Positions 3,290 through 32,562 of a stretch of 64,000 nucleotides of DNA are shown here, in pieces. The DNA comes from an uncultured Clostridia bacterium (lineage in GTDB: Bacteria; Bacillota; Clostridia; TANB77; CAG-508): NCBI GenBank assembly GCA_948678575.1, contig CAPPGO010000003.1:133691-197690 (forward strand). The letters are read 5' to 3'. The position numbers and the translations under genes were made by a program. The notes below the pieces were generated by a model. The model had not been told where the DNA came from. It did no database searches and worked only from the letters and a program-made list of their open reading frames with translations. Each line of letters opens with the position of its first letter. Within the stretch, counting starts at the first letter, position 1.

Positions 3290-3330
3290 AGCCAAAAAAT
3301 TCCCATTTTTACAATGGGAATTTTTTATTA
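3290..3330. terminator. bidirectional rho-independent terminator between convergent transcription units
   Basis: AATTCCCATT-TTTACA-ATGGGAATT 9-10 bp stem flanked by A-run and T-run. Confidence 0.5.
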
Positions 3331-5422
3331 TGGCTCTATTGAACCAAATAATTCATCAAATTTTGCTTCTAATTCTTTTTGAATATCTGATAACTCTTCT
3401 TGGCGTTTTTCTTCTGCTTTTGTTGCTTTCTCTTCTGCTGTTGGTTGATTTGTTTCAAGTGGTGTTTGGTGCTTATCATCAGCATTATCAATATCCGCAA
3501 ATAATTGATCTAATGATTCCAAAGATTGTTGTGCTCCTCCACCTTTTCCAGAGTTTTCATCACCTTCTTGATAAGGATTATATGGATTATATTTTCTCCA
3601 TTTTCCTCTTTCTATTTCAACATCATTATGGTCTACTTTATATTTTGTTATACTCTTTCCAATTGGATATTTAAAGTAATAATATTTATTGGCTTTAACT
3701 GGCTTGATACCTTTTTCATATATGATACAAAGATCTGTATCCATTCTACGAAGCTCATCTGGTGTCATAAGTGCTCTACCCATAATTTGGTCAGATTCAC
3801 TCTTACCTTGTTTCCAATCTTCTCTATCTTTGTTTACTGAAACATTGTCTCTTGTGATTGTCTTTTCACCTAATGCCTTAGAAAAATATTCAACAGTTTT
3901 TTGTGAGTTTGAACCTAAGAAAAGGTGAGTATCACAGTTACCAATGATTGTTTCATAAGCTTCTTTATAAACTGCCTCTAATTGGTCTAAGTTTTGTAAA
4001 ATAACACTAAATGATATTTTTCTACTTCTTGAAGTTGAAATCTTTTTATCAAAATCTGGTATTTGACCAATGTTTGCAAACTCATCTAGTATAAAATATG
4101 TAGGCACTGGAAGTGCTCCACCATTTGCATCAGCAAAGTCATATAACTGTTGTATCATTTGCGAAAAGAATATTGTAAGCAAGAAGTCATACGCTGTATG
4201 TGTATCAGAAGATATAACATACACTGCTGTTTTTTGACTACCTATTTTTGTAAAGTCTATTGTATCTGTTGATGTAACTTCTGCAATGTCTCTTGAATCA
4301 AACTTACCAAGTTTTGATTGCAATGAGCTTAAAATAGAACTAAATGTTTTTTCAGGAGCTAATTCAATAGATTTATAAAACATTCTAGCAGGATGATCAT
4401 AAGGTAATTGATTAATTAAATTTGTAAGTAAATTATCTCCATTATTATTATTTGCTGCTCTAATTAATTCAGAACAACTTGCTAAATTTTGTTCTTCTGG
4501 TGGTCTTACAGCTTTTAGGTAATAAATTAAAGCTTTAAGTAACATCTCAGACATATCATCCCAGAATGGGTCTTGTGCTTTTCCATCACCTTGACCTTTA
4601 ACAATTGTATTAGCAATAACATCGACATCTATTTCATTATTTATGTGATGTAATGGGTTATAACCATCACTGTTTTTAGGATTTACTAAGTTTAAAACTT
4701 TTATATCATAGCCTTTTGATTTAAAAAATCCAGCTGTTTTATCATATAATTCACCTTTTGGATCTGTAAATACATAAGAACCCAAAAGTTGTGTAGCATT
4801 TGGAATAACGTAAGAAGCTGATTTACCAGCACCAGAACCTCCGTACAACAAGGACATTTACATTGCCTCGTTTATCTGTTGGCAAGTAATTTTTTTCAGC
4901 TAATATAATACCTTTATTTCTACTTAAAATTTGATATTGCTCTCCGTTTTCACTCCAATCACTTGAACCATTTTCAATATTCTCATATTCGTGCTTTGGA
5001 AATGCTTTAATAACACCTACTAAAACAAAAGTACCATAGAAAATAACAAACCATTTGCAAACATACATATATGAACCAAAAAACTCTGTAAAACATCTTG
5101 ATACTGAGCCAATTGGATTTCTTAAACCATATCCTATTTTTTTACCATCTTCTGTTTCTTGTATTAATTCTTTACCTTCTTCATCAACACCTAGTAGTGC
5201 TTCAAAAAAAACACTCCAATCAAATTGCTCTTTAATGCTTCCATCATTTTCTCTAACAAACTCTTGTGTTTCTTGATCTATTACAGGTACCCATGCAACA
5301 TTGATAGCTACAGTAAATGGTGCAATTCCCCATAAAAGAACTGCTATTATCAAAACTGTAGCTACAATTATTTTTCCTTTTATTTTTTTTAAGGCCATTT
5401 TTAATTTTTCAAAAAATCCCAT
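3328..5422 (-). pseudogene. VirD4/TraG-family type IV coupling protein; 2-TM N-terminal domain (4823..5422) and ATPase domain (3328..4857) lie in different frames
   Basis: ATPase piece has Walker A LLYGGSGAGKSAS, VIPNATQLLGSYVFTDPKGELYDKTAGFF, YNPLHHI, Walker B ILDEFANIG and MTPDELRRMD, all VirD4/TraG hallmarks. The upstream ORF has two TM helices and ends NVNVLVV just before the P-loop. The two ORFs overlap by 35 nt in different frames, and a stop lies directly upstream of the second ATG. Confidence 0.6.
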
Positions 5423-7525: not shown

Positions 7526-10500
7526 TCAAGAAATATTAATTTGTGCTAAATCTGTTATTGAAATTTTTCCATCACCATTTACATCTCCTGCAATATCTTC
7601 AATTCCTGTTAAAGTATTTTTTTCTATAAGATGTAATTTAACTTTTGCAACATCTACTACTGAAATCTTTCCATCTCTATTAATATCTCCTATAACTATT
7701 AATGTATATTCTACATTTTCTCCAATTTTTATTGTCATTCCTGTACATATAATACTATCATCTTACACTTTGTTGCCATTACTATCTAAAATTGTTATTT
7801 CTTTATTTGTTTCTATATTTTTCTTAAATTCAGTTACTGTTGTTTTTTGTGATATTCTTGATATATATGTTCCTTCAATTTTATATATATTTGAAGAAAT
7901 CTCTGACTGTTCTTTTTCTAGAATTCTTAATAGTAATTGTACATCACTTGTAGATATATCATTTGTTCCATTACTTCCTTCAATAGATACTAACTTGAAT
8001 ATAGTTTCACTTGGAACTTGTATTGTTTCTTTTACTTTTAATTTTACTTTAAATATTGTTTCTTCTTCAGTTATGTATTTATCACTTTCTGTTACAAATT
8101 TAAAGTTATCATCATTAAATGAATTTTCATCTAAATTCCAATTGTTTTGTTCTAAAATTTCTATAACTTCCAATTTTTCTTTATCATATTCAAATTTTCC
8201 TGTTAATGCTATTAATCCTTTTTTGAAGTTTTTCATATTTTTTACTTTTACATTTACTTCAAATTGCTCTCCTGAATTTAATGTTTCTTTTGGAGTTTCT
8301 AAACTTAAATTAAAACTTGGAAGTGTTGGAACATCTGGATTTTCCTCACCTTTTATCCATGCAACTACTGCTTTTGCTGTTCCTGTATTTCCTGCTGCAT
8401 CTACATATTCAAAAGTGCTTTCTCCGTTTTCTTTAAATGTATGTGTCATTTTTCCATCGTTATTCGTAACTGTAATATTTCTTATTGGATTAATTAATTC
8501 TGCTACTACATCTTTATTAGTTGGAGTAGTAATATTATAATTTACATCTGCTCTCGGTGTCTCATTTACTAGAACATTTTCATATAGTTTTATAACAGAT
8601 GCGGTAAACACTTTATACTTAGTAGCTGAATCCATTGGTGTGTAAATGCTTTCACATTCAAATTTAACATACAAAGCTTTTTTTGCTCTGGAAAATCAAT
8701 ATGTTTTAGAGAAACATTATTTCCTAAATTATCTTTACTTCCTGCTAATTCCCAATTAGTACCATCCATACTTACATAAATATTAACTTTTTTGGCTACA
8801 CCATAAGGTACTTTAACAATATTTACAGCACTTTTATCAGGTATAAAGTCTAATCCTGATATATATCTTGGTTGATCTAATTTAATTGTTATATAAGCAG
8901 GAAACATACCAGCTTTAGAACGCCAATAAGTATTAACATTTCCATCAATAACATTATTAAAGTTTCCTGCACCAGTTGCATTTTTTCAAATTCTTAGATT
9001 GAATATACCATTTTGTATCATCAGAATTATTTTCTTTAAAAGTAAAATATACTGGATCACTAGCAACTTGGGTTCCCGAAGCAGTTACTCTAACATAAAC
9101 TCTTGTATTTCCATTAAACACTGGATTAGTATTAGCAAATGAATTCCATTCTCCACTAGGATCTAATGTCCATTCCATATCATTAGTTGTATTTTATATA
9201 CAATTTTCTTCATCATTACTTGAAACTACTCCACCTGGAAATGCTCTTTTTGTAATATCAATTGTATAAATATTTGCCTCAGTCATAGGCAATCCAGATA
9301 TATGAATTTTAATATCATCATTTACATTAATACTTGCAATTTCCTCATTTGTAAGTTGTACAGAATGATCATAACATTCTTTCCATGTATTACCAGCATC
9401 TAAACTATAACTCCATGTTACTTGTGCACTTTGTAGTTGTTTAGATAAAATTATTTTACCTGCATATTTTCCATCAAATGAAAATGTTGCAAGTTCTGAT
9501 TGTGGTTTACCTAATAATGTTGTAGCTACCCCTCTGCGTATATTATTGGCACTCACTTCAGCCCATTGTAATGTATTTGTTCTTAATGCTACTGCCTCTG
9601 CATTTAATGTAGGATTACTAATTTTTCCAATAATCATTCCAAATAAATCGTAAAATGCAAGAGGTCTTGTTTTATATATAACCTGAAATTCTTTTATAAG
9701 ATTTAAACAATCTTCTTCTGTAAATACACTGTTATTTTTATATAATTATACTAAACTATACCAAGCATCAACATTTATTTTTTGTGCATTTATAACTTTA
9801 CGATAAAACTCATTTTGTTTTAATGGATCGCCTTCATAAGCATGTGCAAGCATTATATACTTTTCTGCTATTTTATAATTGCTATAATCATTAACTGCTT
9901 CTTGAGCAATTGCTAAATAACTTAGATTTGAACATCCAGTAGAATATTGTTGTCCCCATCCTAATAATGCTCTATAACCAATACCACTTTGCATAAGAGG
10001 AGACCTTTTAGTTGCAAAATCAAAAGTAGTTGTACCATATGATGAATCTCCCCATGTCCAACCTGAATAAATGTCCCCCAAGAAGCATCTCCATTACTAT
10101 TATAATTTGCAACTGCATAAGCAAGGTGTATTGGCTGACTAACTGGATATGCTGGTACTCCTGTTGAATTATACACATTAGTACTTGTTTGACCAAAACC
10201 AACACATTGGGTTCCAGCTGTAAAAACTATCCATTGTGGTACTAAATATTTTTGATAAGGTATACCATATTCTAAAAAGTGAAATTTATTATTCCACATA
10301 GTTTTATTTTCTTCACTATAATATTTATCATCAAAATATTGATAATATCTATTATATCTTAACCAAGCATGAGAATATCCTCCTCCTCTACTCATAACAT
10401 AATCCCTTAGCCATTCAATCTCATTATCTGATATGGAAGCTTTCATAACAGATTTCATTTCCTCAACTTCTAGTTTTGGAAATACTGAATTTAATTTATT

Positions 10501-11390
10501 TGCTAAGTACATTTTTTTATAAACTGCATAACGTCTTACTGGATCAGATACATGTGAACTATTTGGATCATTACGTTTTGAATTATCATATCCATCTTCT
10601 GCAACGTTTGGCATAAAAGAACGAACTAATGCAGAGTGTGTATGAGAAATAGCCATAATCATTTTTTAAATACATCGCCATTACGATAACCATTTGCTCC
10701 ATTATCATTTACATATAATCTTAAATATCTAGCACCTTCTATAGGCACTCTACATTCTACTGCATTTTGGTTTGGTGATACTGGTGCTCTATATTTTTCC
10801 GTCCAATTTTGACCATCATTTGATGTTGAAATAACAAATGTTACACCATTTCTAGCAGTTGATGTAGTATTTAATCCTAAATATGCATAAAAATAATCAT
10901 ATTCTGAGAAATTTCTTAAATCATAATATAAATCTGAAGTTGCATGAGCCCAAATACCTTTATCAAAACTTGTCGCTGTTCCACCAATTTTTACTGTTAT
11001 TTTTGTATTTGTTGATGTTTTATCATTAAGAATACTACCATATTTTGTACTTGATTTACTCATACGTGGTATGTCTGATAAATATGTAAGTTTACCTGTT
11101 GCTCTTGTTTCAGAAGAATATGTTGTTGGTACAGCTTTAACTTTTATTGCATTTTTTTATTCTTGTGCTACTTCAAATGTTTCTAAATACCCATTTGTAC
11201 TTTCCTTTATAGATGAATTTTGCTTATCTTCTACAATTTGCTCAGTAAATAAAACTCTATTTTTACCTACTACTTGCAACAATGTTGATTTCGTATTTAC
11301 TGCATTTGTGTTCGCAAAAAGATAAGTTCCCATTGCTAATGAACATGCTGTAAAAGCTGTTATTGCAATTTTCTTTTGAAAATCCTTCAT
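7526..11390 (-). pseudogene. disrupted, truncated paralog of the giant NPCBM/cohesin-dockerin protein (at least 4 frameshifts and at least 4 in-frame stops)
   Basis: Nine consecutive minus-strand ORF fragments: 11157..11390 signal peptide; 10659..11063 NPCBM-like; 9961..10662; 9746..10081; 9194..9637; 8957..9178; 8590..8907; 7763..8674 cohesin-like; 7526..7738 dockerin with GDINRDGKISVVD and GDVNGDGKISITD. They align colinearly by eye with the N-terminal 900 aa and the C-terminal cohesin-dockerin of the 11617..20028 protein, but alternate between three frames. Confidence 0.65.
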
Positions 11391-11513: not shown

Positions 11514-11573
11514 TAAAAAATACAAAAAACAACCTCAAGCATCCATTTTATATTGGATTTTACTTGAGGTTGT
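11514..11573 (-). terminator. rho-independent terminator of the giant gene
   Basis: ACAACCTCAAG...CTTGAGGTTGT 11-bp stem with nested inner hairpin, followed on the minus strand by a T-rich run. Confidence 0.5.
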
Positions 11574-11616: not shown

Positions 11617-14600
11617 TTAATTAATTTCTTTTAAACCTATTATTACTAATTTCATTATTGCTAAATCATTTATATTTACTTCTCCGTCTTTATTTACATC
11701 TGCTGCTATTAGATTTATTCCTGTTAAAATTTCTTTATCTATTAAATGTAATTTTATTTTTGCTAAGTCTATTATATCCATTCTTCCATCTTCTTTAATG
11801 TCTCCTAATACAACTATTGTATATTCTTTATTTTCCTTTTCTACTTTCAATTTCATTCCAGTTTTTAATATTGCTTCTGCTGTTTGTTCATTGTTCTCTT
11901 TATCTACTACTTTTGTTGTTCTATTTACTGTTATATTTTTATTGAAGTTTGCTACTGTTGTATTTGGTAAAACATATTTTATAATGTTATCTGAAATTTC
12001 ATATTTTTCAGATGAAATTTTAAATGGTTCTATTGGTTCTTCTTTCTTTGCTATTTGCAATTTTAATGCTACATCATTTGCTACTATGTCTATTTCTCCA
12101 TTGCTTCCTTCTAAGTTTCTTATTCTAAAGTTTGTTTCTATTATGTTTTCTGGTTTTAATGTCTCTTTTACTTTCATGTTTATTCTAAATGCAACACCAT
12201 CTGATAATACATATTGACCATTTTCTGTTATGAATTTTAAATTATCTTCATTAAATGAATTCTCATCAAAATTCCATTTATTCTCTCCTACAATATCTAT
12301 TAGTTCTAATACATCTTTATTGTATTCTATTCTTCCTGCAATAGCTATCAAACCTTTTTCGATATTCTTTATATTGCAAATACTTACTATTACTTCAAAG
12401 TTGTCTCCTGGATTTAATTTTTCTTTTGGAGTTGATAAAACAGCTTTAAATCTTGGTGCTGTATTTTCTTCTATTACAATTTGTATTTTTAAGATTTCTT
12501 TATTACCATCTGCATCTGTTACTTCATAACTTACATCATATGTTCCTGCTTTTTCTGTATCTAAGTTTGTTGTAATTTTTACTGTATCTTTATTTGGTAT
12601 AATATTTCCATCTTCATTATCTTTTATTGTAATTAAAGAATATAAATCTAAGTCGTCTCCTTCTTTATATTTTAAAGTTTTAGCAATATTTGTAATTACT
12701 GGTTTTCCACCAGCTTTTACTTTATTAATAAATTCTACATAAGGTGCTTTATCTTCTTCTCTTAATTTATTATATGCTTCTATAACTGCTTTCTTTTCTT
12801 CAACGTTTACTTTCTTGTTACTTAATTCTTCCTCTGTCACTTTTGCTTGATAATCAGTTATTGTTTTTATTGCTTGTGCTTTTATTTCTTGATATTTTTC
12901 TTCTGCTGTTTTTATCCATGTTACTTCTGCTTTTGCTGTTCCTTTATTTCCTGCCTTGTCTACAAATTCAAATGTAAAACTTCCATTTGCTGCAAAGGTA
13001 TGTTTATTTCCACCTTCACTAGTTATTGTAATTTCTTCACTTGCATTACCTAATGTTGCTACTACGTTTCCTTCTGTTTCTGTTGTAACATCATATGTTA
13101 CTGTTGCAGTAGGAACTGTTTTGTCTATCCAGTTTACTGATACTGACTTCATTCCAGTATTTCCTGCTTCATCCACATATTCAAAAATATATTCCCCATT
13201 TTCTGTAAATGTATGAGTATTTCCACCTGCTACTGTAACATTATCTAATTTCACGCCATTTTTTGTAAAGTTTATTGTTGCTATTACATCTTGATTTGTT
13301 AATTTTGTAGTATTATATGTTACTTCTGCTATTGGTAATAGTTTATCTATCCAATTTACTGCTGCTTTTGCAACGCCTTTATTTCCTACTCTATCTACAA
13401 ACTCAAATGTAAATTCTCCATTCTCTGTAAATGTATGGGTATTTCCACCTTCACTATTGATTGTTATTTCTTCACTTTCTTCTACTAATGTTGCTACTAC
13501 ATTTCCATTTGTTGCTTTTGTAACATCATATATTACTTTTGCTGTTGGTGCTACCTTGTCAATACAATTTACAACTGCATCTACACTTCCTTTATTTCCT
13601 GCTCTATCTCTAAATTCGAACGTAAAGTTTCCATTTTCTGTAAATGTATATGAATTCTTACCGTCATTATTAGTTATAGTTACTTCGCCTTCTTCTTCTT
13701 CAAAAAGCACCAATACAGTTACATCTTTATTTGTTGGTGTTACTGTATCACCAAATAAGGTTGGAACTGGTACATCCTTATCAATCCAATTAACAACTGC
13801 TTTTGCAACACCTTTATTTCCTGCTGGTCCTATAAATTGGAATTCATACTCTCCATTTTCTGTAAATGTATGAGTATTTCCACCTTCTACTGTTACTCCT
13901 TCTAATTCTTCTCCATTCTTTGTAAAACTTATTGTGGCTACTACATCTTTATTTGTCATTTCTGTTGTATTATAAGTTATTTTTGCCACTGGTAAAGTTT
14001 TATCAATCCAGTTTACTTCTGCTTTTGCTGTTCCTTCATTTCCGTATTCATCTACAAATTCAAATGTAAATTCTTTGTTTTCTGTAAATGTATATGTATC
14101 TTTTCCGTCATTATTTTTTATTCTTACATTTTGTTTATCAAATTTTATTGTTGCTATTACTGGCTGATTTGTTGCTTGCATTATGTTATATGAAATATTT
14201 CCTGTTGGAACTTTTTTATCTATCCAATTTACTGTTGCAGTAGCTGTTCCTTTATTTCCAAGCTCATTGGTAAATTCAAATGTAAAGCTTCCATTTTCTG
14301 TAAAAGTATATGTATCTTTTCCGTCATTATTTGTTATTGTTAAATTCTTATCTTTTTTATCTAATGTAGCCACTACATTTTTATTTGTTTTATCTGTTAT
14401 ATCATATTTTACAGTAGCTGTTGGAATTGTATTATCAATCCAAGTTACCTTGGCTGTTGCTTCTCCTTCATTTCCATAAGGTCCTCTAAATTTAAATTTA
14501 AATTCCCCATTTTCATTAAAGGTATATTTATTGCTACCATCATTATTTAGTATAGTTACATTTTCATTAAATTCTCCTTTAACTTTAAACTTAACTGTTA

Positions 14601-17600
14601 CTGTTACAGGTTGATTTGTTATTTCCTCTGTACTATACTCAAATATTGCCTCTGGTAATGTCTTGCATATCCAATCCACATTTGCTGTTGCTGTTCCTTC
14701 ATTTCCATAAGGCCCTCTAAATTCAAATGTAAAGTTTCCATTTTCTGTAAATGTATGCTTGTTATTACCTTCATTATTTAATATTGTTACTTTATCACTA
14801 GGCTCTCCATTCACCTTAAATTTAACTGTTACTGTTACATCTTTATTGGTTGGAGTTGGTATATCATACTCAAATATTGCTTCTGGTAATGTCTTGCATA
14901 TCCAATCTACTGTTGCTGTTGTACTTCCTTTATTTCCTTCACTGTCTTCAAATTGGAAAGTAAAGCTTCCATTTTCTGTAAATGTATATTCTGTACTTCC
15001 ATTATTATTTAATACTGTTATTTCTGTACTAGGATTAATTAATGTTACTACTACATCCTGATTAGTTAATTCTTTATTGCTATATTTTACTTCTGCTGTT
15101 GGAATAACTACATCTTTCTTTGTTATATCTTCATAGAAATTAAACATCCTAGCTCCAACATGTCTTTTCGCACTTGTATAAGAAGTGTTTGTACCTGTTA
15201 TTTTTACATATCTTACTTTAATTGGTTCATCAAAATCTATTGTTTTTGTATTTTGGTCGTTTGCCCAACCTGTTATTGTTGCAATATCAGTAAAGTTTTC
15301 ACCATCCATACTTCCTTGTATTGTACCACCAAGTATTTTTCCATTTTCAGTATGTGGTACATAATCCATTGCACTTAGATACACTGCACTGTCAAATTTT
15401 ACTATTATATATTTTTCAGTATCTGTACCTGCTGCTGAGTTTAACCATCTTGTATTATAGTTACCATCTATTGCATTTGCTGCTGCACCATTTTGTGCTT
15501 TATCCTCTGCTGAAACTCCTGCCACTTCTAATTTTGATACTGGTATATATTTTCTTGTATCTTCTTGATTGTCTGCTGTAAAGTTAAATTCTACTACATC
15601 ACTTGGTGCAAATATACCCCTCGCTTTTTTTCTAATTAAAAGTTTTGCATCGCCTTCTACTATTGGCTCTTCTGTTGAATAATCAGTCCATCCATTAATA
15701 CTTCTAGCTCTTGATTCATTTCTTTCAATTTTCCATTCTAGTACATCTGTACCTTCCATACCTATTAATCTATTTTCTAAATCATTTAAGTATGCTGATA
15801 TCACAGGTGTAAGTGATTTTTGAATACCTATTGTATATTCTTTGTTGTTAATTCTTATTTTAATTTTGTCATCACCATTTACTGTTTCTACTTCTTCTAA
15901 TGTTAGTGTATGTGTATCTGCTATTCCATGTTTCCATGTAGTTCCACTATTCAAACTATACTCCCAATTTGAACCTTTAAATTCATCTGTTAAAATTATC
16001 TTATTAGCTTCTTCTCCATCAAATGAGAATGATGCTACTTTTTTAACTGTTATATCTTCATACAAGTTAACCATTGCAAGTGAAGCAAATATACCATATC
16101 CTTCCATTTCAATTTTTACATACTGTCCTACTATACTCTCATTAAATGTAATATTCTTTAAATTTTCGTCTTGTATAGCATTTTCTATTCTTCCTGCTTC
16201 TATCCAATCCTGACCATTTTCGCTTACATATACATAAGCATTTTTTATAATACAAGGATCTTCACTTCTATATTTTTTTTGTTTATACTCTAATGCAGAT
16301 ATGTACTTGCTAGTATCAAGTTTTATTGTATATGTTGCTCTCTTACCTTCTATTGAATATCTAAAATCTGTATGCCACAAAGTATTAATATTTCCATCTA
16401 TTGCATTTTGTGCATAATATGGTCTAGTACTATCTATTGATTGACTTGAATACTCATGTACTGATAAATGTGATATTGGTATATATTTTCTATTATCTGG
16501 TTGATTATCTACTGTAAACTGATATTCTGCTATATCACTTGCTACATATTCTCCTTCTGCTTTTGTTCTAACATAAAGTGTTCCTTCACTATCTTCTGTT
16601 AAGTTTGGCTCTTCCTCTGCATATGCTTTCCAACTTCCATCATTAAACTTCCATTCAAGTTTAGTTGCATCTTTTAATCCAATTAGTCTGTTCTCTAAAT
16701 CATTTACATATGGTGTTTCATTATATGCTTTTTTATCTAAATCTATTAAATATTCCGTAGTATCTTCAGCAAATCTTATCTTAATATCATTTTCTGCTGT
16801 TAACACTTTTAATTCTTCATTATTTAATTGATGTACCTCTAATGTACCATTTTTCCAATTTACACCACCATCTATACTATATTGCCAATTTAAATTTTTA
16901 TATTGATCTCTAATTTTAATCTTTCCTGCTTCTTCTCCATCTAGTCTAAAATCAGCAACACATACCTTTGTTATGTCTTCATAAAAATTAAACATTTTTG
17001 CTGCTATGAAAGTTCTTCCATCCCCATAATTCGATGTAGCTTGGAACTTTACATATTTAGCTTCTTTTGATTTTGAAAAATTAACAGTTTTGATATTAGC
17101 ATTATTTCCCCATCCACTAAACGTTTCAACTTCCGTCCAATTTGTTCCATCAAGGCTTATAAATACTTTTCCTGCACTTACGCATCCATTTCCACTTCCT
17201 GCTGGTACATATTCTACTGCTGATATAAAAGTGGTTTTGTCTAACTCTATTGATATAAATCTTTCACTATCGCCTCCACTATAATTTGAATGCCATCTTG
17301 TATTTATATTTCCATCTAATGCATTAGCAATATGCCCATTCTGTCCTCCACCTGTTGCTTCACTTGAGAATGTATGTAACTTTATTCTTGATAATGGGAT
17401 ATATTTTCTAGTATCTGGTTGATTATCTGCTGTAAATGTATATCTTCTAGAATCACTTGAAATCGCTGTTCCTGTTGCTATCTTTCTAATTTCTACAGTT
17501 TTGTCTCCCGTTAAATCTGGTTCTGCTGTTTTATATGAAGTCCATGCATCTGTATCATTCAAACGCCATTCTAAAGTTTCATTTGCGCATATAATACGGT

Positions 17601-20028
17601 TTTCTAAGTCATTATTATATAAATTATTAGGAAGAGTTCCTTTTGTAATATCAATTGTATATATTATACTTTCTAATCCCATGAATTTAATTAATATGTC
17701 TTTTTCTGGTGTTATACTTGCAATCTCTTCTGCTGTTAAAGTTGTTGTTGGTTCAGTTTTAAAGTCTGCTACCCATGTTTCTCCATTATCTAAGCTATAT
17801 TTATAAGCATTTTCATAATTAGAATTTCTAACTAGTTTACCTGCATTTTCTCCATCAAATGAAAATGCCATTGGTGGATCTTGTGCTTGATTTAAAAGTT
17901 GTCTTGCATGAACTCTAGTTGGTTCTGCATGATCTGCTTCATCATTAGAAGTATACGAACATGCTCTTGTTAGTACTTCTCTTTCTAATCCATCTATTTC
18001 TATTCTATCTGCACCCTCTAAATATGGTCTTATAACTTTTATTAAGTCAAATAATGCTACTGGATGATGTTCATAAGCTGTAATAATTTTTCTAGCTAAA
18101 GTTGCCCAATCATTACTTGTTATTGTTCCACCTTGATTTTTCACACTCATATTTTTATAAAGACTAATCATATAATCATAAGTATCCAAATTTAAATCAT
18201 TAATTTCTAATGATTTAAAATAAGTTTCTATTTTCTGATTATTGTCTGTATATGAGTTAGCAACTAAATCATAATATAATGATTTTCTATATGCTTCTAA
18301 GTTATTTAGGTTATCTTGACCTAAATATAAATAACCTGTACTTGATGCAATTTTGTTACCACTAATTTTTTGATCAGCAAAATATTTATTTCCCCAATTA
18401 AATAATAATCTTACACGTTGACCACCACCCCAAGTTGTACCAGCACCACTCCAGTTTCCATACCTTGTAGACCAAAATCCTTTTCCGTCATTTGTTTGAT
18501 AATATGTTATATATAATTCGTGTCCTACTTGATATGCTCCAACTGCTGGAAGTCCATTAACACGATTCATACTTTGTCCAGCTCTTGATGCATTCCAACA
18601 TATTCCACCATTTTCTAGTGTCATCCAAAAACGAACTGCTCCATCTCCATAAGGAACTTTATATTTTTCTCCTAAAACTTCATCTTCTAGCATATATTTT
18701 TTTACATATTTTTCTCTGTTTGCTTCATCTCTATATGCTGGTCTATTATAAACTGGCGAAACATAGGCATACCAGTAAAAATTATATCCTGTCTGATTTC
18801 CTTGACCATTGGGTTTTGCTATAGGTGTATTACAGTATTCATTAAGCCATACAAATTCGTCATTTCTTACTGGTTCTTTCATTAATAAACGCATTAATGC
18901 AACATGATAGTCTTTTACCCAGTCATTATGTACCATTGTACCTGTCATTCCAGTGTTGTTTACTCTTCTAAATTTATTATTGTCAAATAAATACTTTAAT
19001 ATTTCAAAACGTTCTATATAATCATAAGTTGCTGTTTGTTCCCCAAAGTTTAAAGGTCCTATTAGTGCATCAGTTGAATATGATGCTGCTAACGATATTA
19101 TCATTTTTTGATATACATATCCATTTTCTGTTTTAAGATCTTCTTTGTAAGTACAATATAAGTTTGACAAAACTTCAATAAATCTTACAGTATTTAGTTC
19201 TCCAACTTCTACTACTTGTTCAAGAGTATCATCTTTACTAAATAACCAATCAAAAGTTTCACGAGCCTTATTATCATAATTAGCATAGCTTACAATTGTA
19301 TTATAGTCAAATTTTCTTACAAATTCTCTTTCAAGAATAAGTCTATAATTGTTATTATAATTATAATCTGCATCATGACTTCCTAATATCTCATCATAAT
19401 ACTCTAATTTATGTATTTTATCATAAGTTTCTTCTTTATCAACATAATCACTCTTAACGAGTTTTGCTCCTCCTAATACAGCATGGTCTGCTGCATTACT
19501 ACCATTTGGATCAACATATATACGTAAGTATTTATATCCTTCAATATTAACATCTATATTTAATGCATCACTTACACCAGTTACTACTGAAGATTTAGCA
19601 ATTAAATTAGTCCATTTATTACCATCATTAGATACTAATACCCTAAACCATACACCATTACTATTGTTACCACGTGATGCATCTACACCAGCTTTTGTAA
19701 TAAATCTTGTGTATTCTCCAGATAGTTCAGATATATCATAAGTTATTTGTGCTTTTGCATGAATACCTAAACCTTTGAAAAAAATCTTGTTTTTTCCATT
19801 TTCTTTTAAGGTAATCTTTGAACCTTCTGGTGGTGCATCTTTTTTGATGCTACCCCAACTGACATAAGACCAGTTATTGGTAGTAATATAGTCTAAGTCA
19901 GATAAGTATTTAACTTCTTCGTCTGAACTGGCTAATACTTCATTGCCAAAACAACTAAGAATAGTTAAAATCATAAAACAGCAAGCAATTAATATAAAAA
20001 TTGCTTGTTTTCTTTGTGTTTGTTTCAT
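11617..20028 (-). CDS. giant secreted multimodular protein, 2803 aa (NPCBM, central unassigned domain, 3x F5/8 type C, 10 Ig-like repeats, FIVAR-like, cohesin-like, dockerin)
   Basis: Start ATG at 20028 with RBS GGGGGAGGAAAAAC; the tracker's 15-codon N-extension is rejected. Signal peptide MKQTQRKQAIFILIACCFMILTILSCFG. NPCBM motifs YLSDLDY...GLGIHA...DHAVLGGAKL. Three F5/8 discoidin domains (A.DGN.NT.WHS ... DG.NWT). Ten tandem 72-78 aa repeats (TFTENG.FTFEF.D..GN.G...V.WIDK). C-terminal cohesin-like module about 12046..12457. Two dockerin repeats about 11638..11815: GDIKEDGRMDIIDLAKIKLHLI and ADVNKDGEVNINDLAIMKLVII. Confidence 0.8.
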   Translation of the reverse strand: MKQTQRKQAIFILIACCFMILTILSCFGNEVLASSDEEVKYLSDLDYITTNNWSYVSWGSIKKDAPPEGSKITLKENGKNKIFFKGLGIHAKAQITYDISELSGEYTRFITKAGVDASRGNNSNGVWFRVLVSNDGNKWTNLIAKSSVVTGVSDALNIDVNIEGYKYLRIYVDPNGSNAADHAVLGGAKLVKSDYVDKEETYDKIHKLEYYDEILGSHDADYNYNNNYRLILEREFVRKFDYNTIVSYANYDNKARETFDWLFSKDDTLEQVVEVGELNTVRFIEVLSNLYCTYKEDLKTENGYVYQKMIISLAASYSTDALIGPLNFGEQTATYDYIERFEILKYLFDNNKFRRVNNTGMTGTMVHNDWVKDYHVALMRLLMKEPVRNDEFVWLNEYCNTPIAKPNGQGNQTGYNFYWYAYVSPVYNRPAYRDEANREKYVKKYMLEDEVLGEKYKVPYGDGAVRFWMTLENGGICWNASRAGQSMNRVNGLPAVGAYQVGHELYITYYQTNDGKGFWSTRYGNWSGAGTTWGGGQRVRLLFNWGNKYFADQKISGNKIASSTGYLYLGQDNLNNLEAYRKSLYYDLVANSYTDNNQKIETYFKSLEINDLNLDTYDYMISLYKNMSVKNQGGTITSNDWATLARKIITAYEHHPVALFDLIKVIRPYLEGADRIEIDGLEREVLTRACSYTSNDEADHAEPTRVHARQLLNQAQDPPMAFSFDGENAGKLVRNSNYENAYKYSLDNGETWVADFKTEPTTTLTAEEIASITPEKDILIKFMGLESIIYTIDITKGTLPNNLYNNDLENRIICANETLEWRLNDTDAWTSYKTAEPDLTGDKTVEIRKIATGTAISSDSRRYTFTADNQPDTRKYIPLSRIKLHTFSSEATGGGQNGHIANALDGNINTRWHSNYSGGDSERFISIELDKTTFISAVEYVPAGSGNGCVSAGKVFISLDGTNWTEVETFSGWGNNANIKTVNFSKSKEAKYVKFQATSNYGDGRTFIAAKMFNFYEDITKVCVADFRLDGEEAGKIKIRDQYKNLNWQYSIDGGVNWKNGTLEVHQLNNEELKVLTAENDIKIRFAEDTTEYLIDLDKKAYNETPYVNDLENRLIGLKDATKLEWKFNDGSWKAYAEEEPNLTEDSEGTLYVRTKAEGEYVASDIAEYQFTVDNQPDNRKYIPISHLSVHEYSSQSIDSTRPYYAQNAIDGNINTLWHTDFRYSIEGKRATYTIKLDTSKYISALEYKQKKYRSEDPCIIKNAYVYVSENGQDWIEAGRIENAIQDENLKNITFNESIVGQYVKIEMEGYGIFASLAMVNLYEDITVKKVASFSFDGEEANKIILTDEFKGSNWEYSLNSGTTWKHGIADTHTLTLEEVETVNGDDKIKIRINNKEYTIGIQKSLTPVISAYLNDLENRLIGMEGTDVLEWKIERNESRARSINGWTDYSTEEPIVEGDAKLLIRKKARGIFAPSDVVEFNFTADNQEDTRKYIPVSKLEVAGVSAEDKAQNGAAANAIDGNYNTRWLNSAAGTDTEKYIIVKFDSAVYLSAMDYVPHTENGKILGGTIQGSMDGENFTDIATITGWANDQNTKTIDFDEPIKVRYVKITGTNTSYTSAKRHVGARMFNFYEDITKKDVVIPTAEVKYSNKELTNQDVVVTLINPSTEITVLNNNGSTEYTFTENGSFTFQFEDSEGNKGSTTATVDWICKTLPEAIFEYDIPTPTNKDVTVTVKFKVNGEPSDKVTILNNEGNNKHTFTENGNFTFEFRGPYGNEGTATANVDWICKTLPEAIFEYSTEEITNQPVTVTVKFKVKGEFNENVTILNNDGSNKYTFNENGEFKFKFRGPYGNEGEATAKVTWIDNTIPTATVKYDITDKTNKNVVATLDKKDKNLTITNNDGKDTYTFTENGSFTFEFTNELGNKGTATATVNWIDKKVPTGNISYNIMQATNQPVIATIKFDKQNVRIKNNDGKDTYTFTENKEFTFEFVDEYGNEGTAKAEVNWIDKTLPVAKITYNTTEMTNKDVVATISFTKNGEELEGVTVEGGNTHTFTENGEYEFQFIGPAGNKGVAKAVVNWIDKDVPVPTLFGDTVTPTNKDVTVLVLFEEEEGEVTITNNDGKNSYTFTENGNFTFEFRDRAGNKGSVDAVVNCIDKVAPTAKVIYDVTKATNGNVVATLVEESEEITINSEGGNTHTFTENGEFTFEFVDRVGNKGVAKAAVNWIDKLLPIAEVTYNTTKLTNQDVIATINFTKNGVKLDNVTVAGGNTHTFTENGEYIFEYVDEAGNTGMKSVSVNWIDKTVPTATVTYDVTTETEGNVVATLGNASEEITITSEGGNKHTFAANGSFTFEFVDKAGNKGTAKAEVTWIKTAEEKYQEIKAQAIKTITDYQAKVTEEELSNKKVNVEEKKAVIEAYNKLREEDKAPYVEFINKVKAGGKPVITNIAKTLKYKEGDDLDLYSLITIKDNEDGNIIPNKDTVKITTNLDTEKAGTYDVSYEVTDADGNKEILKIQIVIEENTAPRFKAVLSTPKEKLNPGDNFEVIVSICNIKNIEKGLIAIAGRIEYNKDVLELIDIVGENKWNFDENSFNEDNLKFITENGQYVLSDGVAFRINMKVKETLKPENIIETNFRIRNLEGSNGEIDIVANDVALKLQIAKKEEPIEPFKISSEKYEISDNIIKYVLPNTTVANFNKNITVNRTTKVVDKENNEQTAEAILKTGMKLKVEKENKEYTIVVLGDIKEDGRMDIIDLAKIKLHLIDKEILTGINLIAADVNKDGEVNINDLAIMKLVIIGLKEIN
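12910..15160 (-). repeat. ten tandem coding repeats of about 225 bp (Ig-like / Cry22Aa-Ig / DUF5011-type modules) inside the giant gene
   Basis: Recurrent peptide unit ...TNKDVV.T......TI.NNDG...YTFTENG.FTFEF.D..GNKG.A.A.VNWIDK..P.A seen 10 times; DNA-level recurrence of tccattttctgtaaatgtat-like segments. Confidence 0.65.
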
Positions 20029-20104
20029 GTTTTTCCTCCCCCATATTTTAATTTTTATAACTTTTATTAACATAACATTTACTTTATTATACTATCATTG
20101 GCAG

Positions 20105-20131
20105 TTATTGTCAATTCCTTAATGACAATAA
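20105..20131. promoter_or_regulatory. perfect 9-9-9 palindrome TTATTGTCA-N9-TGACAATAA upstream of the giant gene (candidate operator)
   Basis: Located about 80-100 bp upstream of start codon 20028 in the 225-bp intergenic region. Confidence 0.3.
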
Positions 20132-23679: not shown

Positions 23680-24457
23680 TTATTTACTTGATATATCATT
23701 TTTAAAAAATTCATTTAATACTGCATTTACATTTTGAATATTCTCTAAATATGCAAAATGACTTCCACTAACATATTTTACAAGTCCACAATCTGGAATT
23801 AATTTTTCCATTTTTAGCGCATCTGAAAGTGGTGTTGCAGTATCTAAAGTGCCCCAAATTAAAAGCGTTGGTGCTTTTATATTTGGAAGTAATTTCGTTG
23901 AATCTTCATTTACTATTATTTTCATAGTTTCTTTTAAAACTGTTGGTGATGCTTTATAATCACTAGATCCAACTTTATTTAAAAGTTTTTCTTTAAATTC
24001 TTTTACTTTTGAAATATTAGGTAACAAATTTAAAAAGAATTTTCCAGTTTTAAAAAAACCAACTTTTGTATAATAACTGAAACTACGTTTTGGTTTTAAA
24101 CCTGCACTATCTATAAGTACAACTTTTCTTGGTGTAACTAACCCTCTACCGAACTGCATTTATAATAATTCTTCCACCATTTGAATGACCTATTAAAATA
24201 GGATTTTCAGCTTTTAATTTTTTCACAAGTTCTGCTAAAAAGTCGCCAAAATCATTACTGTTTAATGGATGTTCTGGTAAATCACTTTTTCCAAAACCTA
24301 CAACATCAACCAAGTATACTTTAAAATTTTCTTGCAAACTTTTTGCCATTGGTCTCATTGTTTCTAAATCTGTAAGCCATCCATGTAAAAGAATTACTGG
24401 TGTTCCGTTTCCATAAACTTCATAATTTATGTTCCAGTCTTTTACTTTTATTTGCAC
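23680..24457 (-). pseudogene. alpha/beta-fold hydrolase split by a frameshift at 24149..24159
   Basis: N-fragment ends at the nucleophile elbow IGHSNGGRIIINAVR*; C-fragment (MQFGRGLVTPRKVVLIDSAGLKP...SGSHFAYLEN) continues the same fold in another frame; stops flank the junction in both frames. Confidence 0.55.
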
Positions 24458-31338: not shown

Positions 31339-32562
31339 CTATTTGGTAAATTTTTTCCACTTTCCATTAGCTTTGTATTTGTTTACTCTGCCTGCTTTGT
31401 CCGTTTTGATGGCTGTAACTTTACTTGCGAACGATTTAACTGATTTTCCATCATAATAATAGCCTTTTTGATTTGGTAAGAACCAAACTGACGATCCCTT
31501 TGCAGAAACACCAAAGTCCTTTGCCCCAATGCTTTTTGAAAGCTTTTTATTCTTCCAATATAAGCAATTGTTTTTAGCTACTAAACTTCCGATAAGTGTT
31601 TTTCCGTTGTAAGCCATTGACTTATTGGAAAAATTTTTCACTTTGGAAACTTTTTTTGATGAAACTTTCTTAGGCTCCTTAATCACTTCTGATACAGGAT
31701 GTCTTTTCTTGTCAGTTACGATTTCTTTAATAAAGCCATTATCATTTTTATCAAACGAATATACAACTTCATCATTCAAAATCTCATACGCTGTTGAATA
31801 ACCATCTGCATACGTAAACTCATAAAGTTTTCCGCTCAAATCATAGACATATACAGAATACTGCGCCGTATAGCCTACAAATTTGCCACCTTTACAGGTT
31901 TTGGATAAAGTTTTTTTGAATTGTTTTACATACACACTGGAATTGTAGCATTCAGTTGTTGCAGTCAGTTTATTCTTAAAGTAGGCATCATAACCTATCT
32001 TTTCAGCATTTCCACCTACTGCATACTGATGAACATAGCTACCAGTTGTTACAGTGGCATCCTCATGTCGTGAATAACTTCCAGAGAATACCAGTTCTGA
32101 TAAACTTTTTACGGTTCCATCAGATAACATTACTTTTACAGCAAAATCTTCATTGTCCAAAACAAAATATTTGCCTGTAACGCTACTAACGCTCTGATAT
32201 GCATTACTTAATGATTCTTCCAACCGACGAATTTCTCCGCCATTTGATATTGCAAAAAACATTCCCGCTTTGTTTGTAGCCACTGTCGGCTCTTTCAAAG
32301 AGAAATTTGCAATGTCCTTCATACTAAGCACTCCTGACTGATCGTATAACTCTGCACCTTTCAATGCCATTCTGTCATCGATCTTGTAGGCATTTGCTTT
32401 GCCGTCAAAATCATAATGCTGTACATGAAACATACCGTTTTTATCATCTTTCCACTGATAGCCATAAGGCTCATTTGTGGACGCCTGAACGGTAATATTT
32501 GGAACAAATCCTAATAATGCAACTACTATTGCCAAACACAAACTCTTTAATGCTTTACTCAT
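31339..32562 (-). CDS. secreted protein of unknown function, paralog B (elevated GC about 36-38%)
   Basis: Start MSKALKSL at 32562 with RBS GAAGGGGGA and signal peptide; the tracker N-extension is rejected. Shares motifs with 32860..34095: PYG[YF].W.DD, HVQ.Y..D..A.AY.I.DR, KGGKFVGY..QYSV..YD, KNF..KSMAY.G. Confidence 0.6.
   Translation of the reverse strand: MSKALKSLCLAIVVALLGFVPNITVQASTNEPYGYQWKDDKNGMFHVQHYDFDGKANAYKIDDRMALKGAELYDQSGVLSMKDIANFSLKEPTVATNKAGMFFAISNGGEIRRLEESLSNAYQSVSSVTGKYFVLDNEDFAVKVMLSDGTVKSLSELVFSGSYSRHEDATVTTGSYVHQYAVGGNAEKIGYDAYFKNKLTATTECYNSSVYVKQFKKTLSKTCKGGKFVGYTAQYSVYVYDLSGKLYEFTYADGYSTAYEILNDEVVYSFDKNDNGFIKEIVTDKKRHPVSEVIKEPKKVSSKKVSKVKNFSNKSMAYNGKTLIGSLVAKNNCLYWKNKKLSKSIGAKDFGVSAKGSSVWFLPNQKGYYYDGKSVKSFASKVTAIKTDKAGRVNKYKANGKWKKFTK

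Follow-up and report, generated by a model that had tools for sequence, protein, structure and literature searches.

The DNA analysed here, called the window below, is a stretch of 64,000 nucleotides (nt) from the assembly of an uncultured Clostridia bacterium (contig CAPPGO010000003.1 of GCA_948678575.1). Its reverse strand carries a complete gene for a secreted protein of 2803 amino acids (aa), in which carbohydrate-binding modules (CBMs), an array of immunoglobulin-like (Ig) repeats and a tail with both a cohesin and a dockerin accompany a central domain without annotation. A preliminary description of the region, made from the sequence without database searches, had already proposed a secreted protein of this length, and the open reading frame (ORF), the ATG start codon and the Shine-Dalgarno sequence all agree with it (Table 1). 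As the gene has its own promoter and is followed by a terminator-like hairpin, it forms an independent transcription unit. The guanine and cytosine (GC) content of the window is 27-30%, and an ORF of 8.4 kb that lies in such DNA and yields nine independent domain matches cannot be random. The protein is identical to the NCBI entry MCX4302861.1, labelled 'MAG: discoidin domain-containing protein [Clostridia bacterium]' (MAG, metagenome-assembled genome), the sequence of which is indexed in 145 blocks of the assembly collection.

We consider the architecture mapped in Table 1 nearly certain. Domain searches and internal comparison recovered the NPCBM module, the three F5/8 type C modules, the ten Ig-like repeats, the cohesin and the dockerin as the preliminary description had laid them out. 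In Pfam, F5_F8_type_C was matched in three stretches with a combined E of 3.5e-51, and the three copies were delimited by internal comparison. Among solved structures, those nearest to the CBM51 and CBM32 modules come from Clostridium perfringens glycosidases (2vmg/2vmh, 4lks, 2v72, 4a41 and 2j7m/2j1a), the last pair being C. perfringens CBM32 structures and the best PDB matches of the three F5_F8_type_C modules (E 8e-16). The FSFDG and NDLENR repeats, described earlier as interleaved with the CBM32 modules, belong to a threefold repeat with a unit of ~305 aa, in which each CBM32 is preceded by an FSFDG module (motif at residues 722, 1027 and 1334) and then by an NDLENR module (806, 1109 and 1415). 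These small beta-sandwich modules show weak similarity in Pfam to DUF4073 and CHB_HEX_C and have no relative among PDB sequences. The array of Ig-like repeats is a probable stalk or spacer. For the linker that follows it, the preliminary description had suggested a FIVAR-like segment, a suggestion that we had to abandon, since no FIVAR match was found in Pfam or among PDB sequences at E≤10.

Table 1. Features of the gene for the 2803-aa protein and of its surroundings, in window coordinates.
Feature	Residues	Position	Strand	Basis or remark
ORF		11617..20073	-	Only long ORF in 11617..20073
Complete coding sequence, 2803 codons + TAA stop	1-2803	11617..20028	-	ATG at 20028 gives 2803 aa
Shine-Dalgarno sequence GGGGGAGG		20035..20042	-	6 nt before the start codon; direct reading of the sequence
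Sigma-70-type promoter, TTGACA-17-TATAAT		20086..20114	-	12/12 consensus positions; ~58 nt upstream of the start codon
Terminator-like hairpin, then U-run		11529..11573	-	Folding energy -22.3 kcal/mol, z-score -6.8; 45-90 nt past the stop codon
Signal peptide	1-33	19930..20028	-	K/R-rich start, hydrophobic core 9-25, then VLA/SS (cleavage at the slash); hydropathy and pattern
NPCBM/NEW2 (CBM51)	40-190	19459..19911	-	E 3e-25; PDB 2vmg/2vmh, E ~1e-11
Unannotated central domain (525 aa)	195-720	17869..19446	-	Presumed catalytic
Cys477 codon	477	18598..18600	-	Candidate nucleophile; conservation and model
His503 codon	503	18520..18522	-	Candidate general base, motif Q500-x-G-H503; conservation and model
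Repeat unit 1: FSFDG and NDLENR modules, CBM32-1 (881-1020)	721-1023	16960..17868	-	
Repeat unit 2: FSFDG and NDLENR modules, CBM32-2 (1188-1327)	1024-1330	16039..16959	-	
Repeat unit 3: FSFDG and NDLENR modules, CBM32-3 (1505-1636)	1331-1637	15118..16038	-	
Ten tandem Ig-like repeats, ~73 aa each	1638-2372	12913..15117	-	Weak Big_9 match
Linker, ~68 aa, rich in charged residues	2373-2440	12709..12912	-	Helical by sequence alone, according to the preliminary description
Bacterial surface Ig-like domain, PF16403	~2441-2522	12463..12708	-	Match at 2470-2512, E 2.6e-8
Cohesin	2523-2665	12034..12462	-	PF00963
X module, ~73 aa	2666-2738	11815..12033	-	Between cohesin and dockerin
Type-I dockerin	2739-2803	11620..11814	-	Dockerin_1 match 2741-2793
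Decayed tandem paralogue (B type), at least 8 ORFs		7526..11390	-	Immediately downstream of the 2803-aa gene

The central domain and its candidate Cys/His centre

Residues 195-720 gave no match in Pfam, NCBIfam or PDB sequences, either alone or as a profile (PDB profile search to E≤10), and in the protein as a whole the same three resources revealed no glycoside hydrolase (GH) model (GH84, GH33 and GH31 included) or other known catalytic family. The earlier assessment of the central domain as uncharacterised therefore stands, but its size is ~525 aa and not ~700 aa, the excess being the first FSFDG/NDLENR module. Only nine relatives of the domain came from a word-indexed search of 5.8 billion proteins. 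When 1.84 billion cluster representatives were searched exhaustively with a profile, 394 of them matched at E≤1e-3 and 257 at E≤1e-30. Database labels of the members are 'hypothetical', 'NPCBM/NEW2 domain-containing' or 'discoidin domain-containing', and a full-text literature search found no paper characterising the domain.

In a scan of species-representative genomes, the domain was present in 35 GTDB species, all of them gut MAGs or isolates (mouse, wild mice, and Hadza and Nepal human samples) and labelled as Bacilli, Erysipelotrichales, 'Tenericutes', Clostridia or Ruminococcus. One partial family member comes from Enterococcus faecium. Essentially all 35 loci encode proteins of ~1400-1650 aa with the same order of signal peptide, NPCBM, central domain, FSFDG/NDLENR, CBM32 and 3-5 Ig repeats, and the size and architecture of the domain are constant in these species whatever the tail. 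A distant metagenomic member of 2627 aa (P0092) has two GDSL-type esterase domains upstream of its NPCBM, a fusion that points to combined de-O-acetylation and glycan processing.

Conservation was counted over 139 non-redundant family representatives; identity of family members to the window's copy is 23-58%, a range taken from an alignment of 53 sequences. Cys477 is kept in 136 of the 139 and His503 in 138, Gln500 and Gly492 are each present in every one, and Pro494 is also conserved. The family motif can be written as W-M-x-x-E-x-G-x-x-C-[GW]...G-x-P...Q-P-G-H-x-A-Y...G-x-W-x-N-D-x-x-G-W. The preliminary description had seen no nameable motif and no HEXXH in this domain. HExxH is indeed absent from the 2803-aa protein, as is HxxEH, and a metallopeptidase reading was rejected on these grounds, but a Cys...His pair in a transglutaminase-like arrangement can be named.

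To model the domain with AlphaFold2 (AF2), an alignment of 53 family members was used; a run with 8 sequences gave an unusable model with a predicted local distance difference test score (pLDDT) of 57. The final model reached a pLDDT of 91.5 and a predicted template modelling score (pTM) of 0.92, and shows an alpha+beta core with eight helices on its N-terminal and eight on its C-terminal side, the helical-repeat arms being ~200 aa each. Cys477 is the first residue of a helix (283-295 in model numbering), and His503 the first residue of the next long strand after it (309-317). As modelled, this placement of Cys on a helix and His on a strand is that of papain- and transglutaminase-like thiol enzymes. 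Support from sequence comparison is weak but consistent. Transglut_core was the only Pfam family to recur among 34 core segments (4/34, best E 0.009), and one of its matches, over profile positions 30-97 of 108, reaches from the Cys as far as the Asp. With hhalign, the Cys helix of the family was placed onto the Cys helix of genuine transglutaminase-core proteins (P 0.013-0.047), for which a narrow comparison alignment of 12 sequences was built from a neighbour gene at locus L038. This gene (L038 7660-9075, minus strand) encodes a genuine Transglut_core protein of 471 aa and adjoins the gene of a small dockerin protein (P0234) in another gut organism.

The central domain shares several features with papain-like and transglutaminase-core enzymes (PF01841), among which we count, as presumed examples, Png1, bacterial transglutaminase-like cysteine proteinases and PDB 9crn: a G-x-C at the N-terminus of a helix, a G-x-P, a His on a strand ~26 residues later and, in most members, an N/D-D ~18 residues after the His. 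The spacing of these motifs is close to that of yeast Png1. Unlike transglutaminase-core enzymes, the family shows sub-threshold similarity to PF01841, has its core between two ~200-aa helical-repeat arms and is always accompanied by CBM51 and CBM32, and conservation of the third residue does not extend to the window's clade. We regard the central domain as very probably catalytic. Catalysis through Cys477 and His503 has about even odds, and a transglutaminase/papain-like fold slightly less than that, membership of the superfamily being put forward as a hypothesis and not as a finding.

The cohesin-X-dockerin tail

The cohesin matched PF00963 with E 1.6e-10 and 41.7 bits (cut-off 24.1) over profile positions 9-128 of 139, a match that was seen only when residues 2524-2665 were scanned alone and that is not listed in the full-length scan. 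The type-I cohesin 3ul4_A was matched weakly as well (E 0.002). The dockerin matched PF00404 with E 3e-10 and 40.5 bits (cut-off 22.9) and has two calcium-loop repeats, DIKEDGRMDIID, with a non-canonical Lys at position 3, and DVNKDGEVNIND; its PDB matches were 8x39, 2vn5_B and 1daq. Both modules are closest to classical cellulosomal type-I structures (2vn5_B, 1daq and 3ul4), and no C. perfringens cohesin-dockerin structure was among the PDB matches at E≤10.

Most orthologues end differently. Out of ten C-termini read, eight consist of a hydrophobic helix with lysines (KKK tail), the predicted C-terminal membrane anchor of most orthologues, and the other two belong to dockerin genes. A dockerin in place of the anchor was found in three genes from two Clostridia MAGs (two genes of L002 and one of L024), and an X module precedes the dockerin in both L002 genes. 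The window protein has the dockerin end and an additional cohesin, which is present at none of the 35 other loci. It has neither an LPXTG motif nor a second hydrophobic segment, and sortase anchoring was rejected for lack of LPxTG. Since dockerin and anchor are exchanged within a single orthologous family, the dockerin is best read as a tether, and surface display through it seems fairly probable to us. The signal peptide contains CCFMILTILSC at residues 16-26 (19951-19983), in which TILSC26 fits the PROSITE lipobox pattern; judging by this pattern, an N-terminal lipid anchor at Cys26 might exist besides the C-terminal dockerin tether.

The cohesin-X-dockerin (Coh-X-Doc) unit is also found by itself, in complete secreted proteins of only 299-326 aa that comprise a signal peptide, the cohesin, X and the dockerin and are at most 65% identical to the tail of the window protein. 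Stand-alone proteins of this kind, of ~310 aa, are P0231, P0235, P0237 and P0239-P0241. At two loci (L041 3874-6490 and L042 3530-6146), two genes that encode only a cohesin (225 and 237 aa) come after such a Coh-X-Doc gene, and serine recombinase genes flank the group, an arrangement that suggests a mobile mini cohesin-dockerin system. Other relatives of the tail (P0234, P0238 and P0243) are small or fragmentary dockerin proteins with uninformative neighbours. With both halves on one chain, the cassette could work as an adaptor or allow head-to-tail self-association. Cellulosome adaptor scaffoldins, such as ScaA of Ruminococcus flavefaciens and ScaB of Acetivibrio cellulolyticus, also carry cohesin and dockerin, and are non-catalytic and directed at plant cell walls. 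Like them, the window protein has both modules on one polypeptide and would be bound and binding at once; unlike them, its cassette is a single Coh-X-Doc on a presumed enzyme and occurs as a minimal secreted protein of ~310 aa as well.

In C. perfringens ATCC 13124, five GH proteins have one cohesin each, five have a dockerin and one GH31 protein (CpGH31) has both (PMC12997984). The preliminary description had taken cohesin plus dockerin on one chain as a hallmark of the C. perfringens complexes, which does not hold, as a single GH31 protein combines them. This protein is the closest single precedent: like CpGH31 and the C. perfringens Coh(X82)-Doc complexes, the window protein would be a large secreted host-glycan enzyme that combines several CBM32 modules and Ig/FN3-like spacers with a cohesin and dockerin at the C-terminus. 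The further proposal of a C. perfringens toxin-complex architecture thus kept its basis in the likeness of the CBMs and in the joint presence of cohesin and dockerin, but failed in its other parts. We consider it very unlikely that the protein belongs to a non-cellulosomal glycosidase ('toxin') complex of this type, that is, that it is a GH chain with an X82-type cohesin, FIVAR and dockerin and with partners similar to NagH, NagJ and NanJ. The paired modules, the CBM32 and CBM51 modules nearest to those of C. perfringens among solved structures and the GH31 precedent would fit such a membership. However, unlike in NagH, NagJ and NanJ, the presumed catalytic domain lies outside the known GH families and has a conserved Cys/His pair, no FIVAR module was recovered, the cohesin and dockerin fit the classical Pfam models and resemble cellulosomal and not C. 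perfringens structures, the host is an uncultured Clostridia MAG of a different lineage, and C. perfringens is absent from the 35 species with the central domain.

A second system for comparison is the 'mucinolysome' of Limousia (Acutalibacteraceae), in which the cohesins are on non-catalytic multi-cohesin scaffoldins and the dockerins are borne by enzymes whose GH or peptidase domains are known (PMC12997984). Common to both are an origin from gut Firmicutes, type-I dockerins, and secreted and CBM32-rich enzymes that are, for the window protein presumably, directed at mucin and assembled through cohesins. The window protein differs in having one cohesin and one dockerin on the enzyme chain itself, and no multi-cohesin scaffoldin was seen in the window and its 10-kb flanks. 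The low GC content of the window and its 'Clostridia bacterium' label give no sign of Limousia.

The downstream pseudogene and other neighbouring genes

The decayed paralogue next to the gene keeps the module order of signal peptide, NPCBM, central domain, FSFDG, CBM32, Ig, cohesin, X and dockerin. Its breaks are identical in two independent assemblies (L036 and L037), so that it is a true pseudogene, and an assembly artefact was rejected as the source of the fragmentation for the same reason. Its orthologue in L002, L011 and L012 is a divergent 'B' copy, placed there in tandem with an 'A' copy. The Cys and His of the central domain are retained both in the divergent B paralogues and in the window's pseudogene. 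These data suggest that A and B form a conserved two-enzyme pair, of which the organism of the window kept only A.

The window also contains dnaA, gyrB, gyrA, dnaX, recR, the signal recognition particle (SRP) RNA and the sporulation gene ypeB, and is placed near the replication origin of a low-GC chromosome. Its only GC-rich stretch (0.397 vs ~0.27) contains the genes of two adjoining paralogous secreted proteins of 468 and 411 aa (31339-34095, minus strand), each with a signal peptide and without a Pfam match. A TraG/VirD4-like type IV secretion coupling protein (3328-4857, minus strand, E 3e-81) is encoded amid small unannotated ORFs and near an SbcC-like AAA protein (183-2060), and this region may be what is left of a conjugative element that had integrated close to the replication origin. 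An alpha/beta-hydrolase is seemingly split between two overlapping ORFs (103 and 159 aa), one at 23680-24159 and the other just upstream (minus strand; L036 5572-6349), and may represent a second pseudogene of the region.

Proposed function and alternatives

Taken together, we favour the view that the protein is a secreted, cell-surface-displayed enzyme of an uncultured low-GC gut Clostridia bacterium and acts most probably on host (mucin-type) glycans or glycoproteins, to which we assign a probability of roughly 0.55. The 525-aa domain would be the catalytic part, with its Cys477/His503 centre on a transglutaminase/papain-like core between the two helical-repeat arms, and it would act on a glycoconjugate as a thiol hydrolase, amidase or transferase, such as a glycopeptidase or a peptide:N-glycanase (PNGase)-like glycoamidase. 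The CBM51 and the three CBM32 modules would hold the enzyme on galactose-, N-acetylgalactosamine (GalNAc)- or blood-group-type glycans, and the Ig array would serve as a stalk. The dockerin would replace the membrane anchor and act as a tether by binding a cohesin, located either at the cell surface or in a different protein. The protein's own cohesin could in turn bind a dockerin, either on a separate protein or on a second copy of itself, giving chains or clusters. We hold only tentatively the more far-reaching idea that the central domain founds an unrecognised thiol-dependent class, found in gut Firmicutes only and delivered by CBM51/CBM32, that cleaves or modifies host glycoconjugates (e.g. 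as a mucin glycopeptidase or PNGase-like glycoamidase) and is displayed through a self-complementary, polymerising or networking Coh-X-Doc.

Several results weigh against the view of a displayed thiol enzyme. The Transglut_core matches are sub-threshold (16 bits vs a cut-off of 23) and 30 of the 34 segments have no match, while the hhalign probability is at most 4%, with an alignment limited to the Cys helix. At the position expected for a third residue, the family has N at 521 in 116/139 and D or N at 522 in 117/139, but the window protein has T-R at residues 521-522, and its closest relatives have P-K or P-R there, suggesting either that the window's clade uses a dyad or a displaced Asn525, which from its place in the sequence could be a substitute third residue, or that the idea of a triad is wrong. 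The host-glycoconjugate substrate, which we think reasonably likely, we infer solely from the gut origin and from the modules that accompany the domain. No partner gene was found in the window, where the neighbouring pseudogene has the sole further cohesin and dockerin, and it is no more than conjecture that the cohesin binds the dockerin of the same protein. Finally, structure searches with the model of the central domain gave no significant match to a solved fold and returned only helical-repeat (TPR-like) proteins.

This last result would be in keeping with the protein being a non-enzymatic giant adhesin or scaffoldin, with the central domain as a helical-repeat binding platform, that attaches to mucus and organises dockerin-bearing proteins. 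The four lectin-type modules, ten Ig repeats and cohesin, which make up most of the chain, would also agree with such a role. We nevertheless find it distinctly unlikely, because near-invariant Cys, His and Gln residues in a compact alpha+beta core, across sequences with the low identities given above, look typical of an active site, because the domain keeps its size and architecture in the 35 species irrespective of the tail, and because a single cohesin is unlike true scaffoldins.

The weakness of the evidence for a transglutaminase fold also leaves room for a new carboxylate-based glycoside hydrolase or lyase family, in which Cys and His would be structural or bind the substrate. The constant flanking of the domain by CBM51 and CBM32, as in the exo- and endo-glycosidases of mucin degraders, is in line with this possibility, as are the many invariant aromatic residues (W394, Y422, W468, W519, W526, W545 and Y566) and some conserved acidic ones (D212 in 94%, E472 in ~80% and D615 in 92%). 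However, the strictest conservation among polar residues is that of Cys477, His503 and Gln500 and not of carboxylates, and the window protein has Ala in place of E377, which 88% of the family share. A carboxylate-based enzyme thus appears unlikely, although less so than an adhesin, and the thiol enzyme remains our preferred reading.

The cohesin-dockerin display of host-glycan-targeting enzymes is a known design, and the more interesting part of the protein is its unannotated, widely conserved Cys/His central domain. With regard to the tail, our results indicate that such display in gut bacteria is not confined to cellulosomes, amylosomes, C. perfringens or Limousia, that a dockerin can stand in for a membrane anchor inside a single orthologous family, and that a minimal Coh-X-Doc cassette circulates both fused and as a free secreted protein. 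Mucus-degrading gut bacteria have been studied mostly via known glycosidase and metallopeptidase families, and the family described here, with at least 394 sequence clusters from Bacilli and Clostridia of the mouse and human gut and a fixed lectin-flanked architecture, has no Pfam, NCBIfam or PDB entry. If the central domain is catalytic, it would add a new activity to the inventory of host-glycan processing and provide a concrete target for biochemistry.

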